This document shows, piece by piece, positions 6,354 to 11,893 of a stretch of 14,369 nucleotides of DNA (position 1 is its first letter; the number at the start of each line of letters is the position of its first letter). The stretch lies in UHGV virus genome UHGV-0126033; one strand, written 5' to 3'. The notes under the pieces were generated by a model. That model was not told the origin of the DNA. It did not search any database and saw only the letters and a program-made list of their open reading frames with translations. The position numbers were made by a program, and so were the translations under genes. Source of the stretch: a virus.

Positions 6354-6378
6354 TCCTACTCCTGTAACATTAAATTTT

Positions 6379-8847
6379 TTAGCAGAAGAAGAACGGGGAT
6401 TCTAGCACTTGCCGGATGTCCAAAGTGCCCACTTCCGGCATGTCCAGGTCCGTCAAGTCTGCCCCGGCTGCTGCTGCCGCGCGAGTAATGTAGCCAAGCA
6501 GGTCATTCTCTTCATACAGGCGCACAAACTGCTCACGGATGTGCCTATGCATAGCGTCAACGTCAGCTGCGTGAGTAGCCAGCGAGTCGTGAATAGGCAC
6601 AATGTCCAACCCCTCCGCAGCACAGAGCACCATCATCAAGTGCGTACTGTCCAGGCTATGCACAAAGTTCGGGGCAATCCCGGAGGCTGCCTTGCGCTTG
6701 TTGCAAGTTTTGAAGTCCCGGTTGTGTACCAGTACCGCTGACAGGTTCATGCAGTCAATACGTACGCGCACTTCTTCACGCTGCGTGTAGCGGTTCATTA
6801 CGAGCCCACCCAGCGGCGTATACCACTGCAGATGCTGGCTTGCCGGTACACGCCTAGCGAGGTTCTGCAAGTACCCCATAACTGCGGCTGCGGCTGGGTT
6901 TGCCTCCTCGATAGCAGTGCGCATACGCGGAGCCAGGTAGCATGACAAGTTCCACAGACTGTTAGTCTCAGTACCCTCGTACCCCTCAGCGCAAGCGCCT
7001 TCGAAGATGTAGTCGCTGCAGCTGCGCACAGTGGCGCTGTAGAAGTAGGTCATACTAGGGCGCTTGGTCATGCTGCGGGTGATTTCGTTCTCTCTCCAGT
7101 ACGTGCTCTGGATAACGAAATCCTCCTTGTCCAGGTCCAGTATCACCTTCTCGTCCGTACGGCGCTTCACGTCCATGTACAGGTCCGCTTTCTTATCATT
7201 ACCCTCCCAGTACAGGTTCGTCAAGCGTCCGCCCACAGGGTCTCTCAGGAGCGCTGAGAGATGCTGTCCACCTGAGTTTGTAGCGTCCATAGCAACTGGG
7301 ATTCGGCTAATATGCTCTTCTGGGCATCCAGAACGAACCGCATTAACCAAGTCGATAGCGGCGGCCAGCAGGCACCAGGGGCTATCCGCAGAGGAAAAAG
7401 CAGGGGCATCAAGAGGAGAATCCGCGAGCCTCTCAATCTCTGCATAGTTCGCATCAACCCAAGCTGCACGGTCTTCGAATAGGGTTTTGTCATAACCAAA
7501 GCAAGTGGCGACGTGCACTTTAAGCCAGAAAAGTCCGCGCTCTCCCAGAGGCTTGCCACGTCCGAATTCAAGAAGGGCTTTCTGCAAATCAGAACCTTGG
7601 GGATGCAGCGAGGACTTGAAGTACAGGCGGTAGCGCCAGTCCACACAAGTCGGGAAGTACAGGGCTTTCTCATCTTTGAATTCCTCCGCCATTTCCAGCG
7701 TGGTCAACAGGCTGCGTAGTTGTGACACACGCTTACGGTCTGCGCTGTACCATAGGGACATGCGCGTCTTCCACTCACCGAAGCGGCCCAGTTCTTCTTC
7801 GGTGTAGTTCTCTTTTGGTACTCCATCCAAGTACCACTCCGGTTTAGGCTCTGGTACTGAGCGGGGCATGCCCACCCCAATACCCAGGGCCCGTGCTTCT
7901 TGCACCAGTTCCAGTATGCGCTTATTAATACGGTATGGGGTTTCCTGTGCCTTATTAAGCGCCTTCTTGATGCCGTCCGCGGACTTAAATGCTTCCGCTA
8001 CTTCACGGAGTCGCGCGCGGTCGATGTGCGAGTTGTGATAGGTCCCGCGATTGTCGATGGGGGTAAGGTACCCGCCATCCCACATAGTGGTGTGCTGTAC
8101 CGGTGGCACCAGCATAGGCGGCTTCATGGTTACGGTATCAGCGGACTCTACCAGTTTCTGGAAGGCCTCCATAACATCGTCAGCCGGGTAGAGCATGCTC
8201 AGGTTCCCACTACAGTTCTTCCATTGGAACAGGCCAGTCTCAAACACCGCGGCACATAGCAGCCGACCTACTGAGATATTCTGGGAGTTGGTCCATGGCT
8301 CGTGCCCATAGTGCACGTTCTCAGCACTGGCCCGCAGCGTACGCAGGATGTGCGTGGGAGACTTGGTCTTACGCTCCGTAAGGTACTCGTACACACGGTC
8401 CATGTACGCCGGAGCCACGTTGCGTAACTGCAGGGCCAGCAGTTCCGATTGTACGTTCCGGCCCAGCGCGGACATTACCGCCTGTGCAGTCTGGCGGCGG
8501 CTAGCGGACTCGCCAGGAGCTACGCTAAATGCCTCAAACATTGTGCATAGGCTCAGGGTGGTCAGGACATCCAAGGGGACTAAGCGCAGGAACCGGCGGT
8601 ACTTACCGCCAATGCCCGGGGCTTTTACATTTCGCATCTCATCGATAGCGGCGGCGGCCACCTCATATGCCGAGGTGAGCATACGCTGCGTCATCGGCAG
8701 GTTCATAATCCCACCGTTCTGCAATGCGTCCGTAATCAGCTTACGTGCCCGCTCGATTCCGCGAATCTTATAGGTCTCTTCAAGCTCCAGCTGGCGTTTC
8801 ACCAGTGCTTCCTCTGGTACTACAACCGTATTCAGGGCGCTAATCAT
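6379..8847 (-). CDS. Single-subunit DNA-directed RNA polymerase (T7 RNAP family)
   Basis: 822 aa. Matches to T7 RNAP conserved blocks: YFPTCVDWRYRLY and HPQGSD, DATNSGGQHLSALLRD (motif A aspartate), ASGIAPNFVHSLDSTHL, IHDSLAT (motif C aspartate), C-terminal LESPFFFC (T7 ends ESDFAFA). ATG at 8845-8847 with AAGGAGA upstream. Confidence 0.95.
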   Translation of the reverse strand: MISALNTVVVPEEALVKRQLELEETYKIRGIERARKLITDALQNGGIMNLPMTQRMLTSAYEVAAAAIDEMRNVKAPGIGGKYRRFLRLVPLDVLTTLSLCTMFEAFSVAPGESASRRQTAQAVMSALGRNVQSELLALQLRNVAPAYMDRVYEYLTERKTKSPTHILRTLRASAENVHYGHEPWTNSQNISVGRLLCAAVFETGLFQWKNCSGNLSMLYPADDVMEAFQKLVESADTVTMKPPMLVPPVQHTTMWDGGYLTPIDNRGTYHNSHIDRARLREVAEAFKSADGIKKALNKAQETPYRINKRILELVQEARALGIGVGMPRSVPEPKPEWYLDGVPKENYTEEELGRFGEWKTRMSLWYSADRKRVSQLRSLLTTLEMAEEFKDEKALYFPTCVDWRYRLYFKSSLHPQGSDLQKALLEFGRGKPLGERGLFWLKVHVATCFGYDKTLFEDRAAWVDANYAEIERLADSPLDAPAFSSADSPWCLLAAAIDLVNAVRSGCPEEHISRIPVAMDATNSGGQHLSALLRDPVGGRLTNLYWEGNDKKADLYMDVKRRTDEKVILDLDKEDFVIQSTYWRENEITRSMTKRPSMTYFYSATVRSCSDYIFEGACAEGYEGTETNSLWNLSCYLAPRMRTAIEEANPAAAAVMGYLQNLARRVPASQHLQWYTPLGGLVMNRYTQREEVRVRIDCMNLSAVLVHNRDFKTCNKRKAASGIAPNFVHSLDSTHLMMVLCAAEGLDIVPIHDSLATHAADVDAMHRHIREQFVRLYEENDLLGYITRAAAAAGADLTDLDMPEVGTLDIRQVLESPFFFC

Positions 8848-8988
8848 AGGCGCTTAGTCTCCTTGGTTATGTCCGGTACTTCTAACTACTGATTGCGACT
8901 TACCCAGAGATTGTACATCTCCAGGTAGTCTTTAGCGGCGCGTTCGTCTCCCCGCTCTACTGCTTTCTGCCACATCCCGTGGCACCAC

Positions 8989-9444
8989 TCACTTGGCGTC
9001 AATGCACTTACCTCTGTGTTGCTCGTATAGTTCTGAGTACTTGTCGGACTTGGCAATGTCTTGTTCCAGCTTATCCTTGTTCCCGGCGCGCAGTCTGTAC
9101 TTGAGCCGGTTCCCCAGGCAGTATCCGTAGAACTGCTCTTTCGTCATACTGCGTGCAATCACCTCAATTGCCTCCAGGTCCGGGAAGAACTGGTAGTGCT
9201 TGGGTGAGTTCACTGCGTCGGGCGCTTGTGTGCTGGTTATGGGGACTTCCCCCGCTACATGGAAGTAGTCCGCGCGCCAACCGCCAGCTAGGTCTCCGCT
9301 TAGTGTAATTGTGGTGCCACTAACCTCAAGCACCTCCCTGGAGGCGTATGGGGAGATATGAAGAGACTCGCAGATTCGAGACCAGTCACCCGACACGTGC
9401 GTAGCTTTACGAACTACCACATCACCAACTTTAATATTACTCAT
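8989..9444 (-). CDS. T7 gp1.7-like protein (DUF3310 C-terminal domain; putative nucleotide kinase) with a different N-terminal domain
   Basis: 151 aa. C-terminal HYQFFPDLEAIEVIARSMTKEQFYGYCLGNRLKYRLRAGNK resembles the T7 gp1.7 C-terminus (HYMLFDDIEAIEVIARSMTVEQFKGYCFGNILKYRLRAGKK) as recalled. N-terminal 70 aa (MSNIKVGDVVVRK...) lacks the T7 gp1.7 Cys-rich region. ATG at 9442-9444 overlaps the endonuclease VII stop as ATGA. Confidence 0.7.
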   Translation of the reverse strand: MSNIKVGDVVVRKATHVSGDWSRICESLHISPYASREVLEVSGTTITLSGDLAGGWRADYFHVAGEVPITSTQAPDAVNSPKHYQFFPDLEAIEVIARSMTKEQFYGYCLGNRLKYRLRAGNKDKLEQDIAKSDKYSELYEQHRGKCIDAK

Positions 9445-9884
9445 TTAATAGTCTCCCGTGCTTTACGTCGTGCCCGGGCCTTGCGGGCCTTGAGCTTCTG
9501 TGCCTGCGCCAATTCTTCCGGCGTCTTGTGCGTATAGTATAGCATATCCGTAGGTTCGCGGTCTAAGTAATCGGCGACCCTACGTAGAGATTCAGCAATA
9601 GCCCCAGAAGATTGCATGCTACCAACAATCCAGCGCCCAGCGGCAGATGCCACTTTGCCTTCCCCTCCATTGCACGAGCGATGAAGAGCACCCCGAATAC
9701 GCCCAGTAATATGATCGTGGTCAACGACAACAGAATCACCAGTTACCCCCTTGATTGTGAAGTCCAAAGGTTTGCCACAAAGGGGGCAGATACCTCCCTG
9801 GTCTTTGGCAAGCTTAATTGCCACGGAGCGAATCTGTGCCCGTGTAATCTTCCGCAGACTCATACGTATATGAACCCCCACCAT
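9441..9884 (-). CDS. Endonuclease VII-like Holliday-junction resolvase (T4 gp49 family)
   Basis: CPLCGKPL followed by VVVDHDHITGRIRGALHRSCNGGEG, the zinc-binding and DHDH pattern of endonuclease VII. Start uncertain: ATG at 9884 has no Shine-Dalgarno; ATG at 9863 (MSLRK...) has a G-rich stretch upstream. Confidence 0.8.
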   Translation of the reverse strand: MVGVHIRMSLRKITRAQIRSVAIKLAKDQGGICPLCGKPLDFTIKGVTGDSVVVDHDHITGRIRGALHRSCNGGEGKVASAAGRWIVGSMQSSGAIAESLRRVADYLDREPTDMLYYTHKTPEELAQAQKLKARKARARRKARETIK

Positions 9885-9983
9885 AAATGCGCGGAGCGTA
9901 TGTGAGCTACGGTCAGTGCCGGAGACATCACCTCTCCGGTGTTAGTGCACCTAACCTGAACCCCTTGCTGTGGGGCGGGTTCC

Positions 9984-10011
9984 AATATATACACGTCTTG
10001 TGTATCCTCAA
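9984..10011 (-). promoter_or_regulatory. Candidate sigma70-like promoter (TTGAGG, 16 nt, TATATT) in the intergenic region upstream of the endonuclease VII gene
   Basis: On the minus strand TTGAGG (plus 10006-10011) and TATATT (plus 9984-9989) with a 16-nt spacer. Match by eye only, in the most AT-rich part of an otherwise GC-richer window. Confidence 0.25.
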
Positions 10012-10032
10012 AAGTATATTCTCTACCCATTT

Positions 10033-10233
10033 CTAACATAGTTCAATCTCCCCCACTACATCCAGCATAGCATTGTCGTGAATGAGAGAATCCAAATGCT
10101 CAACCGTTCTTCGATGTGTTTTGGGTGCTCGTTCACGCAGCGCAACCAGAATAGTTTCAAGTTCATCATGTTTCCCCTCGTAGTATAACTCAATCGCCCG
10201 CAGGCTCATTTCCTTCGCAGACATCTTCGCCAT
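10033..10233 (-). CDS. Hypothetical small acidic protein (66 aa from the ATG at 10233)
   Basis: Track ORF 10033..10302. The ATG at 10231-10233 (MAKMSAKEM...) has AGGAG 12 nt upstream and overlaps the exonuclease 3' end by 44 nt. Glu/Asp-rich. No motif. Confidence 0.45.
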   Translation of the reverse strand: MAKMSAKEMSLRAIELYYEGKHDELETILVALRERAPKTHRRTVEHLDSLIHDNAMLDVVGEIELC

Positions 10234-11158
10234 TGTCTGGGTGCTCCTGTATCCACTGTATATGCTGTTTATGGTACTCGTGCAGCGAATGCACCCAGTC
10301 ACGCAGACTGGGAGTAGTCAACAGTGACATCAGATACAGGTACGCTGAATCTGACGGGGAGCGCCGCAGGAACAGGCATTCTGCCTCTGCGAGTACATCT
10401 TGGTTGTTTCGAGCGTAAGCCGCTACAACGAATTCTGCGGCGTCCTGCTCTGAGGTAATAGGGTAGATAGCATCAAAGGCCGTTCGCTTCCCACAGAGCT
10501 TCCCATCAAGCAATGTGATGCCTTTGACGTTATCTGCGTCATCTCCTGCTAGCATCTGCCACCAGAAGAACTTAGTGCCATGCGCTCGTACCGGCATAGC
10601 CTGGGTATCATCCCACTTAATCCATCCGAAGGGGTTATCCAAGGCAGGCCATACGGTTCCGGTTGGGATATCGAACCGGGCCATAGGGCTGAGCCAGGAG
10701 TCCTTGTCCTGAGACATCAGGATTCCACGGTCCCCGAAGCTGTACGAATCCATTATGAACAGGTCATCCGCCTCGAAGTAGTCACTGCTTACTACCTGAA
10801 TACCCTGCTCAGAATACTGGTCTGGATTTTCAATCAGGTGCCGCTTCAATGGCGCCTTGAGCGGTAGCTCCTGTCGATTAGCGCGCTGCCCCTGATAGGG
10901 CTTAGCCGTAGGCAGGTGCCAGCGCAAACACTTGGCGCATCCCGTAGGCGTCAGATACGCAACTGCTTCTGAGCAGCCGACCAGGAACATGTCCTCAAGC
11001 ACCAGCTGATAGAAGCGGCGTATTGCGGTGTCCAAACGTTTCACTGTAGCGGCAGATTTATAAACTGTGAAATCCGCATCGTACAGCAGAATCTTCCCAG
11101 AGTTCTGCGGAGCTAACTGCTCCCCGAGCTGGGACAAGTCAACCCCGTTGATAATCAT
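10190..11158 (-). CDS. 5'-3' exonuclease (FEN family, T7 gp6-like)
   Basis: 322 aa. Acidic active-site blocks in the expected order: ILLYDADFTVYKSA, FEADDLFIMD, MSQDKDSW, LAGDDADNVKGI. ATG at 11156-11158. Confidence 0.8.
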   Translation of the reverse strand: MIINGVDLSQLGEQLAPQNSGKILLYDADFTVYKSAATVKRLDTAIRRFYQLVLEDMFLVGCSEAVAYLTPTGCAKCLRWHLPTAKPYQGQRANRQELPLKAPLKRHLIENPDQYSEQGIQVVSSDYFEADDLFIMDSYSFGDRGILMSQDKDSWLSPMARFDIPTGTVWPALDNPFGWIKWDDTQAMPVRAHGTKFFWWQMLAGDDADNVKGITLLDGKLCGKRTAFDAIYPITSEQDAAEFVVAAYARNNQDVLAEAECLFLRRSPSDSAYLYLMSLLTTPSLRDWVHSLHEYHKQHIQWIQEHPDNGEDVCEGNEPAGD

Positions 11159-11321: not shown

Positions 11322-11519
11322 TTAAATCTCCAGTCTAGCTACTGATTTAGTAGCTGATTTCACCTGCTTACGGGTAGGTTTAGCGGCCCAGCGCACCACG
11401 TACATGGTGCAAGGGTCGTCCTCCCGGATAAAGGTTACGTACCAGCGGTTGCAGGCATGCTCAGCATAAGGTGCCATAAAGCTGTGCCTAGGTGCGTGCA
11501 CCTCTACACGTACGCCCAT
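11322..11519 (-). CDS. Hypothetical protein (65 aa from the ATG at 11519)
   Basis: Track start 11525 is a TTG; the ATG at 11517-11519 has GGAGG seven nt upstream and lies 2 nt after the upstream gene stop. Protein MGVRVEVHAPRHSFMAPYAEHACNRWYVTFIRE...; no motif. Confidence 0.5.
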   Translation of the reverse strand: MGVRVEVHAPRHSFMAPYAEHACNRWYVTFIREDDPCTMYVVRWAAKPTRKQVKSATKSVARLEI

Positions 11520-11521
11520 GC

Positions 11522-11893
11522 TCAAGCCTCCAGCTCAGATAGCACCAGCACGGTGCCGAGCATGTCCCCGATTACTTCCGGAGTACGCAGGCTCTGGTCT
11601 ACGTCGTAGATGCAGGAACCAATCTCCGCCAGCCCGATGCTTAGCGTACCCACTACACGGATAAGCACGAGGTCGTCGCCACGTAGCTTATCGGCATGTG
11701 CCGCCAGGTCGTTGTGCTCTTTGAAGGCGGTAGCGGCCAACTCCAGGTCCATGCCGTACAGGGCCGCCAGCTTGTCCAGAGCATCGTACACAGCGCCGAG
11801 CTGGTCACCATTGTCGAAACCTTGAACGGCGCTACAGTTCACGTAACCTACAGCCAGAACCAGTTTCTTGTATGCGTCTAGTACTTTGTCCAT
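11522..11893 (-). CDS. Hypothetical acidic protein (123 aa); weak resemblance to all-alpha NTP pyrophosphohydrolase (MazG-like) helices
   Basis: ATG at 11891-11893 overlaps the upstream stop as TAATG. Segments LAEIGSCIYD and EVIGDMLGTVLVLSE loosely resemble MazG-type E-x-x-E and E-x-x-D helices, but the order is atypical, so the call is tentative. Confidence 0.5.
   Translation of the reverse strand: MDKVLDAYKKLVLAVGYVNCSAVQGFDNGDQLGAVYDALDKLAALYGMDLELAATAFKEHNDLAAHADKLRGDDLVLIRVVGTLSIGLAEIGSCIYDVDQSLRTPEVIGDMLGTVLVLSELEA

Follow-up and report, generated by a model that had tools for sequence, protein, structure and literature searches.

Positions 9885-10032 of the window, by which the whole 14,369-nt stretch of viral DNA analysed here is meant, very probably form the body of a real minus-strand gene of 59 codons in a KP34-like phage, in which the hairpins and promoter-like hexamers are incidental. 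The original prediction described the region as structured intergenic DNA upstream of the gene for endonuclease VII and offered two explanations for it, a regulatory hub or a small gene just below the cut-off of the gene track. The second of these is correct, as revealed by a conserved reading frame, a Shine-Dalgarno sequence and a bias towards synonymous substitutions. The main value of this result lies in a correction: the apparent gap between two genes results from a missed short gene combined with a start of endonuclease VII that had been placed 21 nt too far upstream, and the same annotation inconsistency is found among the GenBank records of the KP34-like group. The gene itself is already known, since it is present in public records of related phages as a gene for a hypothetical protein, and the finding is in this respect an ordinary one.

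Source phage and organization of the operon

A megablast search with positions 9400-10400 matched 249 phage records, 233 of which are Klebsiella phages, and the matched records with a taxonomy line are assigned to the Autographiviridae, Slopekvirinae, Drulisvirus (KP34-like). The source of the window is a Drulisvirus, i.e., a KP34-like Klebsiella podophage. All long ORFs of the window are located on the minus strand, and the following features, given in the order of transcription, surround or form the region under study:

11158..10190, minus strand: 5'-3' exonuclease, first in the local transcription order
10233..10033, minus strand: 66-aa gene of unknown function, phrog_6923 (PHROG E = 1.1e-38), annotated as a 201-nt CDS in relatives
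10054..10048, minus strand: Shine-Dalgarno sequence GGGGGAG, 8 nt upstream of the ATG at 10039
10039..9860, minus strand: 59-codon protein-coding gene, an ORFan accessory gene with the product MLEMGREYTFEDTQDVYILEPAPQQGVQVRCTNTGEVMSPALTVAHIRSAHLWWGFIYV followed by a stop, located between the 66-aa gene and endonuclease VII and enclosing 9885-10032 entirely
9863..9441, minus strand: endonuclease VII, 140 aa, with the start MSLRK (phrog_423, E = 2.2e-45)
9444..8989, minus strand: DUF3310-type "nucleotide kinase", 3' of endonuclease VII
8847..6379, minus strand: single-subunit RNA polymerase (RNAP), downstream of the DNA-metabolism genes

In phiKMV-like phages, the RNAP gene is placed downstream of the DNA-metabolism genes (PMC6834552), and the gene order in the window, with the DNA-metabolism genes upstream of the RNAP gene, is the same. 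From the exonuclease to the nucleotide kinase, the genes of the local operon are densely packed, each overlapping the next. The exonuclease and the 66-aa gene overlap by 44 nt, and the 66-aa and 59-aa genes share 7 nt (ATGTTAG), with the TAG stop codon of the former located at 10035..10033. The 59-aa gene and endonuclease VII overlap by 4 nt (ATGA, 9863..9860), which are composed of the ATG at 9863..9861 and the TGA at 9862..9860, and a second ATGA overlap of 4 nt connects endonuclease VII with the kinase gene. The GC content of the 59-aa gene is 48.3%, that of the adjacent 66-aa gene 46.8% and that of the window 54.3%.

Copies in related phages and existing annotation

The 59-aa gene is carried by 8 of the 249 related phage records, and these GenBank copies share 76.7-99.4% nucleotide identity and 79.7-98.3% protein identity with the copy of the window. 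Another eight loci were retrieved from IMG/VR, JGI/ENA metagenomes and Logan assemblies. The eight GenBank copies, the eight metagenome loci and the window copy make up a set of 17 copies with 13 distinct DNA haplotypes, which are 77-100% identical; among the IMG/VR and ENA contigs are copies with 100% identity to that of the window.

The gene is annotated as a CDS for a hypothetical protein in six of the eight GenBank relatives (P7285, VLCpiA1l, P1010, K51PH129C1, PQ5104 and P29), and it is predicted by gene callers in identical synteny on metagenome contigs. The Drulisvirus hypothetical proteins UVX30362.1 (VLCpiA1l), UPT53484.1 (P1010), XMN67814.1 (P7285) and CAK6596041.1 (K51PH129C1) are products of this same gene: they consist of 59 amino acids, are 80-98% identical to the window copy and are encoded at the same place, where the phrog_6923 gene and endonuclease VII flank their genes with identical overlaps, and they do not differ from the window copy in anything substantive. 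In the remaining two GenBank records, ZX11 and VLCpiA1a, the ORF is unannotated and endonuclease VII is extended upstream instead.

Coding signature of the 59-codon frame

The ORF at 10039..9860 on the minus strand, which had been listed in the original prediction, is present, and its 59-codon frame is intact in 17 of 17 copies (13 haplotypes), including that of ZX11, in which a (TA)3 expansion adds 6 nt in frame. The 56 variable columns of the alignment are distributed over the first, second and third codon positions in a ratio of 15/10/31. The pN/pS ratio derived from summed Nei-Gojobori counts is 0.20 in the frame of the ORF, as compared to 1.73 and 1.69 in the other two sense frames, and amounts to 0.06 in the core of the gene (codons 16-42). 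Between the window and VLCpiA1a, 24.5 of 39 synonymous but 17.5 of 138 non-synonymous sites have changed (Fisher p = 2.4e-9). Forty of the 59 residues are invariant, and stop codons interrupt all other frames of the window's own copy. A 49-aa antisense ORF (9887..10036, plus strand) was rejected, as its pN/pS ratio is 1.04 and an additional in-frame stop codon is present in six relatives. Judged by its pattern of substitutions, the 59-aa ORF is a real gene under purifying selection.

These data bear on the first rival explanation, according to which the region is a non-coding regulatory hub with a promoter and/or an RNase III-type hairpin that controls endonuclease VII, and the ORF is fortuitous. 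The lack of an annotated ORF in two of the GenBank records would fit this explanation; however, a pN/pS ratio of 0.20 versus about 1.7, and a frame that stays intact in 13 haplotypes, one of them with an in-frame indel, would not be expected of a fortuitous ORF. The original prediction had itself stated that a 59-aa frame kept in relatives with synonymous-biased substitution would speak for coding and against regulation, and this is the pattern found among the relatives. The regulatory explanation thus appears largely refuted by the substitution pattern already, and we consider it highly improbable.

Translation signals and the start of endonuclease VII

The ORF had been described as lacking a good Shine-Dalgarno sequence, which is wrong: GGGGGAG precedes the ATG at 10039 with a spacing of 8 nt, and the Shine-Dalgarno motif of the gene, GGGGAGATTGA, is invariant across all nine aligned relatives. 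Similarly, the region only appears to be intergenic if endonuclease VII started at the ATG at 9884, and it lies inside the 59-codon ORF. The conserved start of endonuclease VII is the ATG at 9863, as three lines of evidence converge on this codon. In the alignment with phrog_423, residues 2-139 of the 140-aa form correspond to profile positions 2-137; a 423-nt CDS is annotated for endonuclease VII in most relatives; and in phages without an insert, such as KpV475, the protein begins with MALRK.

A second rival explanation holds that the ORF is an annotation artefact and that the sequence is an N-terminal extension or the 5' leader of endonuclease VII, in line with the annotation of ZX11, VLCpiA1a and K51PH129C1. 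Upstream ATG and GTG codons in frame with endonuclease VII indeed permit models of this protein with at least 147 amino acids. However, the frame of endonuclease VII has a pN/pS ratio of about 1.7 in this region and contains four stop codons in the window, the PHROG profile of endonuclease VII begins at MSLRK, and in phages with an empty slot or with another cassette, endonuclease VII likewise begins with M(S/A)LRK. Such an extension or leader therefore has next to no probability.

For the 59-codon gene, the ATGA overlap suggests that the translation of endonuclease VII is coupled to that of the 59-aa protein. Ribosomes that terminate at the end of the 59-aa gene would probably re-initiate on endonuclease VII, and the coupling would be at least partial. 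Codons 43-59, at the 3' end of the ORF, have a pS of 0.14, as compared to 0.33-0.47 elsewhere in the ORF. This low value fits such coupling, as it would be anticipated if these codons double as the initiation region of endonuclease VII; a recombination tract common to the 59-aa gene and endonuclease VII would explain it just as well.

Hairpins within the coding sequence

Two stem-loops are located within the gene:

9919..9939, minus strand: perfect 7-bp stem with a 7-nt loop (CCGGAGA-N7-TCTCCGG), inside codons T34-A41
9953..9981, minus strand: GC-rich stem-loop with imperfect pairing, within codons 20-29, not significant

The inverted repeat at 9919-9939, which had been noted in the original prediction, is present with seven perfectly matched pairs and has a folding energy of -12.1 kcal/mol (z = -2.0), which would be in favor of a regulatory hub. 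However, the window is rich in such hairpins: 14 with a perfect 7-bp stem and a loop of 3-10 nt were counted, as compared to 7.8 +/- 3.4 in dinucleotide shuffles. The second GC-rich hairpin that had been proposed could be recovered as a weaker stem-loop at around 9953-9981 with -11.9 kcal/mol, but it is not significant (z = -1.19), and an equal or better fold was reached by 27 of 200 shuffles. Folding the entire 211-nt region gives a z-score of -0.93, and the designation of the region as structured is thus not borne out.

T7-type RNase III sites need an imperfect duplex of roughly 20 bp and are usually located between genes. The hairpin at 9919-9939 has in common with these sites and with intrinsic terminators that it is a stem-loop within a polycistronic phage transcript; it differs from them in that the stem consists of 7 bp, lies within a CDS, lacks a U-run and is not conserved in three lineages. 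An RNase III processing site was rejected since the longest stem has 7 bp and is located inside the CDS, and since the z-score of the region is -0.93. The stem is followed by CACUGACC, and an intrinsic terminator was likewise rejected as this sequence contains no U-run. Terminator-like sites could not be found on the minus strand between 8800 and 11400, and an Rfam 15 scan of both strands of 9700-10250 yielded no match at E <= 1, which further argues against a regulatory hub.

A third rival explanation assumes a dual function, in which the region is coding but the hairpin at 9919-9939 is additionally selected as RNA, for instance because it slows ribosomes or protects the mRNA and thereby tunes the coupled translation of endonuclease VII. 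Several observations point in this direction. The pair 9938-9920, which is the second from the open end of the stem and involves third codon positions on both sides, occurs as C-G in the window type and as U-A in seven other haplotypes, and the pair 9935-9923 is either A-U or G.U. The stem of the PQ5104 type is lengthened to 8 bp. A count of the pairs in the first nine copies revealed that 96.8% of the cells are paired, with one pair changed on both sides, and the covariation score of these copies was reached by 2 of 500 column shuffles, although relatedness alone can yield such an excess.

The compensatory change is, however, a single event in what are effectively two or three lineages, for which relatedness exceeds shuffles even without structure, and the covariation term of RNAalifold for nine relatives is only -1.48 kcal/mol. 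Furthermore, the stem is not kept in all copies: the pair 9938-9920 is A.A in the copies L010, L017 and L018/L019, and the closing pair is lost (C.A) in L010 and L018/L019. The mismatches in these three lineages shorten the stem to 5 bp, and in VLCpiA1a its energy is -5.9 kcal/mol (z = -0.25). The five inner pairs are formed by GGA-GA, encoding Gly35-Glu36, and TCT-CC, encoding Ser39-Pro40; all four residues are invariant, and the core of the hairpin is fixed because of these invariant Gly-Glu and Ser-Pro codons. The alternative cassettes that occupy the same position in other phages have no equivalent hairpin at a comparable position. A dual function is thus very unlikely. When the conservation of the hairpin is compared to that of the frame, as had been proposed in the original prediction, the hairpin is not kept beyond the codon constraint, and its outer pairs are broken in three lineages. 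The hairpin at 9919-9939 is judged to be a by-product of the coding sequence and not an independent element.

Promoter-like sequences

One promoter-like element is located in the region:

10011..9984, minus strand: sigma70-like TTGAGG-16-TATATT, matching 9 of 12 consensus positions, inside codons 10-19

The sigma70-like -35/-10 pair had been noted previously, and the sequence is indeed present; its 9/12 match could be regarded as support for a regulatory hub. However, a consensus scan found four sigma70-like sites in 2.6 kb, as compared to 2.0 +/- 1.3 in shuffles, which places their frequency at the level of chance. In addition, the hexamers degrade in relatives: the -35 hexamer is changed to TTGGGG or TGGGGT, and the -10 hexamer to TATATC in P29 and CATATT in VLCpiA1a.

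The promoters of the KP34 RNAP have been defined experimentally as the strong sequence T(A/G)ATGTTACAGGAGTA and the weak sequence ACTTTGGACATCCGTCAAGT (PMC6834552). The strong promoter has an exact match in the window at 6372..6357, just downstream of the stop codon of the RNAP gene, and a sequence differing from the weak promoter by one mismatch is found at 6426..6407, within the 3'-terminal part of the RNAP gene; the positions of both mirror those in KP34. Elsewhere in the window, including 9885-10032, neither promoter could be matched even if three mismatches were allowed, and repeated motifs common to 9885-10032 and the rest of the window were not found. Promoter prediction with both models thus returned sigma70-like sites at chance level and KP34-type promoters only at 6357-6426. 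Taken together with the coding signature, the short stem and the lack of an Rfam match, the lack of a phage promoter leaves the proposed regulatory hub unsupported.

An exchangeable slot upstream of endonuclease VII

A comparison of the window with KPPK108.1 and KpV475 revealed that homology stops exactly at the ATG following GGGGAGATTGA-NN and resumes at the ATG of endonuclease VII. In KPPK108.1, JKT6 and JKP2, the slot between these two points is occupied by an unrelated ORF of 76 amino acids, and RCIP0044 and vB_VIPECOTPH05B carry an unrelated ORF of 67 amino acids. In KpV475 and others, the slot is empty, and the same combination of Shine-Dalgarno sequence and ATG starts endonuclease VII itself. 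All three types of cassettes (59, 76 and 67 aa) are entered via an identical Shine-Dalgarno sequence and ATG and exit into endonuclease VII via ATGA. The slot is empty or filled with an unrelated ORF in most relatives that still express endonuclease VII, and this is a further argument against a hub that controls this gene.

The 76-aa ORF of the KPPK108.1 type shows a weak KOW-like match and is more widespread than the 59-aa gene: tblastn detected it in 46 phage records, of which 31 are from Klebsiella phages and the others from Pectobacterium, Erwinia, Ralstonia and related phages. The 67-aa ORF of the RCIP0044 type, found in 23 phage records using tblastn, is DUF7279-like, and its sequence is unrelated to that of the 59-aa gene. 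An alignment of the 59-aa and 76-aa cassettes with hhalign revealed no relationship (probability 0.3%).

The adjacent 66-aa gene and endonuclease VII are typically 96-98% identical, the 59-aa gene 87-90%. The stronger divergence of the 59-aa gene relative to its flanks fits a mosaic exchange through recombination in conserved flanks, and the gene was most likely exchanged in this way. Since relatives have unrelated ORFs or nothing in the slot, the 59-aa gene is dispensable. It thus has the properties of a phage accessory gene: the phage can do without it, close relatives may or may not carry it, and its slot is plastic. In KP34-like phages, a group with uses in phage therapy against Klebsiella, the position serves as a plug-in site for small accessory genes, and a search for host-range or anti-defence factors could reasonably turn to slots of this kind.

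Possible function of the 59-aa protein

The 59-aa protein has no match in PHROGs, Pfam or PADLOC. A search of 5.8 billion proteins retrieved only nine clusters at 90% identity, all from the gene's own family, the members of which have a length of 59 amino acids and are at least 80% identical. A profile search against 1.84 billion representatives returned the family itself and three other proteins. Two of the latter were inspected, a junk-like repetitive ORF and an archaeal-type protein with beta-propeller repeats, and were rejected because their scores are sums of weak matches to repeats; the propeller-repeat protein was also discarded as a homolog based on an hhalign probability of 28% with 34 aligned columns. 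The third is a protein of 4326 amino acids. A sequence search of the PDB yielded nothing convincing (best E = 0.0096). AF2 predicts a beta-beta-beta-alpha fold with moderate confidence (pLDDT 72.5, pTM 0.58), and Foldseek found no significant neighbors of this model in the PDB (best E = 0.63) or in BFVD (best E = 0.027). The protein contains one invariant cysteine, and its window version is mildly acidic.

In T7-like phages, many small accessory proteins act by binding a host or defence factor; those encoded among DNA-metabolism genes include gp5.9, gp5.5 and gp4.5 of T7, which are host-takeover or anti-defence proteins. The 59-aa gene is similar to the genes of such T7-type accessories in that these encode products of around 50-80 amino acids, are located among exonuclease and endonuclease genes, are dispensable and variably present and have mildly acidic products; it differs in that its product has no sequence or fold similarity to gp5.9, gp5.5 or gp4.5, and the resemblance is one of genomic context. 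Because the gene is small, dispensable, swappable and located among nuclease genes in the part of the genome that is transcribed by the host RNAP, the likeliest role of its product, proposed from genomic context and with low confidence, would be that of a small, non-essential protein binding to a host or defence factor. Its synthesis would fall into the DNA-metabolism phase of infection. It is somewhat more doubtful still that this ORFan, as one of at least three unrelated and interchangeable cassettes, encodes a protein that modulates the neighboring recombination nucleases or serves as a new factor for host takeover or counter-defence. If this speculation is true, the host range of therapeutic KP34-like phages on particular strains of Klebsiella would be tuned by the presence of the 59-aa gene.

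Sequence divergence and probable recombination around the slot

The slot, i.e., the position between the 66-aa gene and the endonuclease VII gene, is occupied in the window by the 59-aa gene (9860-10039, minus strand), which is markedly more divergent than its surroundings. The gene shares 77-90% identity between phages, compared with mostly 96-98% for the flanks (9480-9859 and 10040-10233). The relation between flank and gene identity differs from relative to relative; for instance, in L010 (phage VLCpiA1a) and the relative L017, the 66-aa gene is 98-99% identical, while endonuclease VII reaches only 85-86%. Judged from these sequence comparisons, the higher divergence of the 59-aa gene and the relative-specific patterns indicate mosaic recombination around the slot.

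Alternative cassettes and a resident gene possibly related to one of them

L022:554-757 (RCIP0044) and L023:545-748 (vB_VIPECOTPH05B): 67-aa slot ORF, weak resemblance to DUF7279
11525..11322, minus strand: resident 67-aa gene of the window, DUF7279 member (33.9 bits)
L003:739-969, L021:554-784 and L024:539-769 (loci in KPPK108.1, JKT6 and JKP2): 76-aa slot cassette, sub-threshold match to the KOW motif only

The 67-aa ORF occupying the slot in other Drulisviruses scores 23.3 bits against DUF7279, which is under the cut-off of 24.5, and it matches the resident DUF7279 gene of the window by BLASTP over 26 residues (E = 0.001). Based on these similarities, the 67-aa cassette may be a distant paralog of the resident gene. 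The 76-aa cassette reaches 11.2 bits against the KOW motif (cut-off 22.3), and it is labelled "transcription elongation factor" in the record of phage JKP2 despite this sub-threshold score. Homologs of the 76-aa cassette also adjoin endonuclease VII in Pectobacterium phages, and further homologs can be found in Erwinia, Dickeya and Ralstonia phages.

Annotation of the slot and of endonuclease VII

The endonuclease VII gene models disagree between near-identical phages, as seen in the GenBank annotations of five relatives (L006, L009, L010, L021 and L024). The model comprises 140 aa in most records and 147 aa in K51PH129C1 and VLCpiA1a, where it begins at an upstream ATG or GTG. In JKT6 and JKP2, it covers just 213 nt, leaving about 200 nt without annotation, which may be due to a frameshift or a mis-call. 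The model of phage vB_KpnP_ZX11 is longer than 147 aa; in this record, the 59-aa gene is unannotated and the endonuclease VII start is placed far upstream instead. The ZX11 copy of the 59-aa gene (L009:401-586) contains a (TA) microsatellite, GTATATATATTGG, which is three units longer (+6 nt) and results in an in-frame duplication of Tyr-Ile in the protein.

Resemblance of the 59-aa protein to a repeat protein

Within the 59-aa protein, the conserved core DVYILEPAPQQGVQVRCTNTGEVMSPA is similar to one repeat unit, DIYKWDPADGIQAVCTYPGDQMYPA (residues 147-180 and repeats), of the 410-aa metagenomic protein P0011, a propeller-like repeat protein. The two share 38% identity over 34 columns with an hhalign probability of 28%; a PD40 match was sub-threshold. 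The likeness is probably the product of chance or convergence.

Features in and around the RNAP gene

8886-8975, minus strand: 29-aa ORF MWQKAVERGDERAAKDYLEMYNLWVSRNQ, below the usual cut-off, within the 141 bp that separate the kinase and RNAP genes
6357-6372, minus strand: KP34 RNAP strong promoter TAATGTTACAGGAGTA, exact match, directly past the RNAP stop codon
6407-6426, minus strand: KP34 RNAP weak promoter ACTTTGGACATCCGGCAAGT, one mismatch, inside the RNAP gene at its 3' end

The window copy of the 29-aa ORF gave no hmmscan match at E <= 0.01. On a related contig, gene calling gives an almost identical gene of 29 aa, for which a precomputed Pfam match to DUF8272 is recorded, and a 30-aa gene at a similar place on a second contig, known from its gene call, is labelled DUF8272. 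The strong and weak promoters of the KP34 RNAP were defined experimentally, and their layout around the RNAP 3' end in KP34 is identical to that in the window (PMC6834552).
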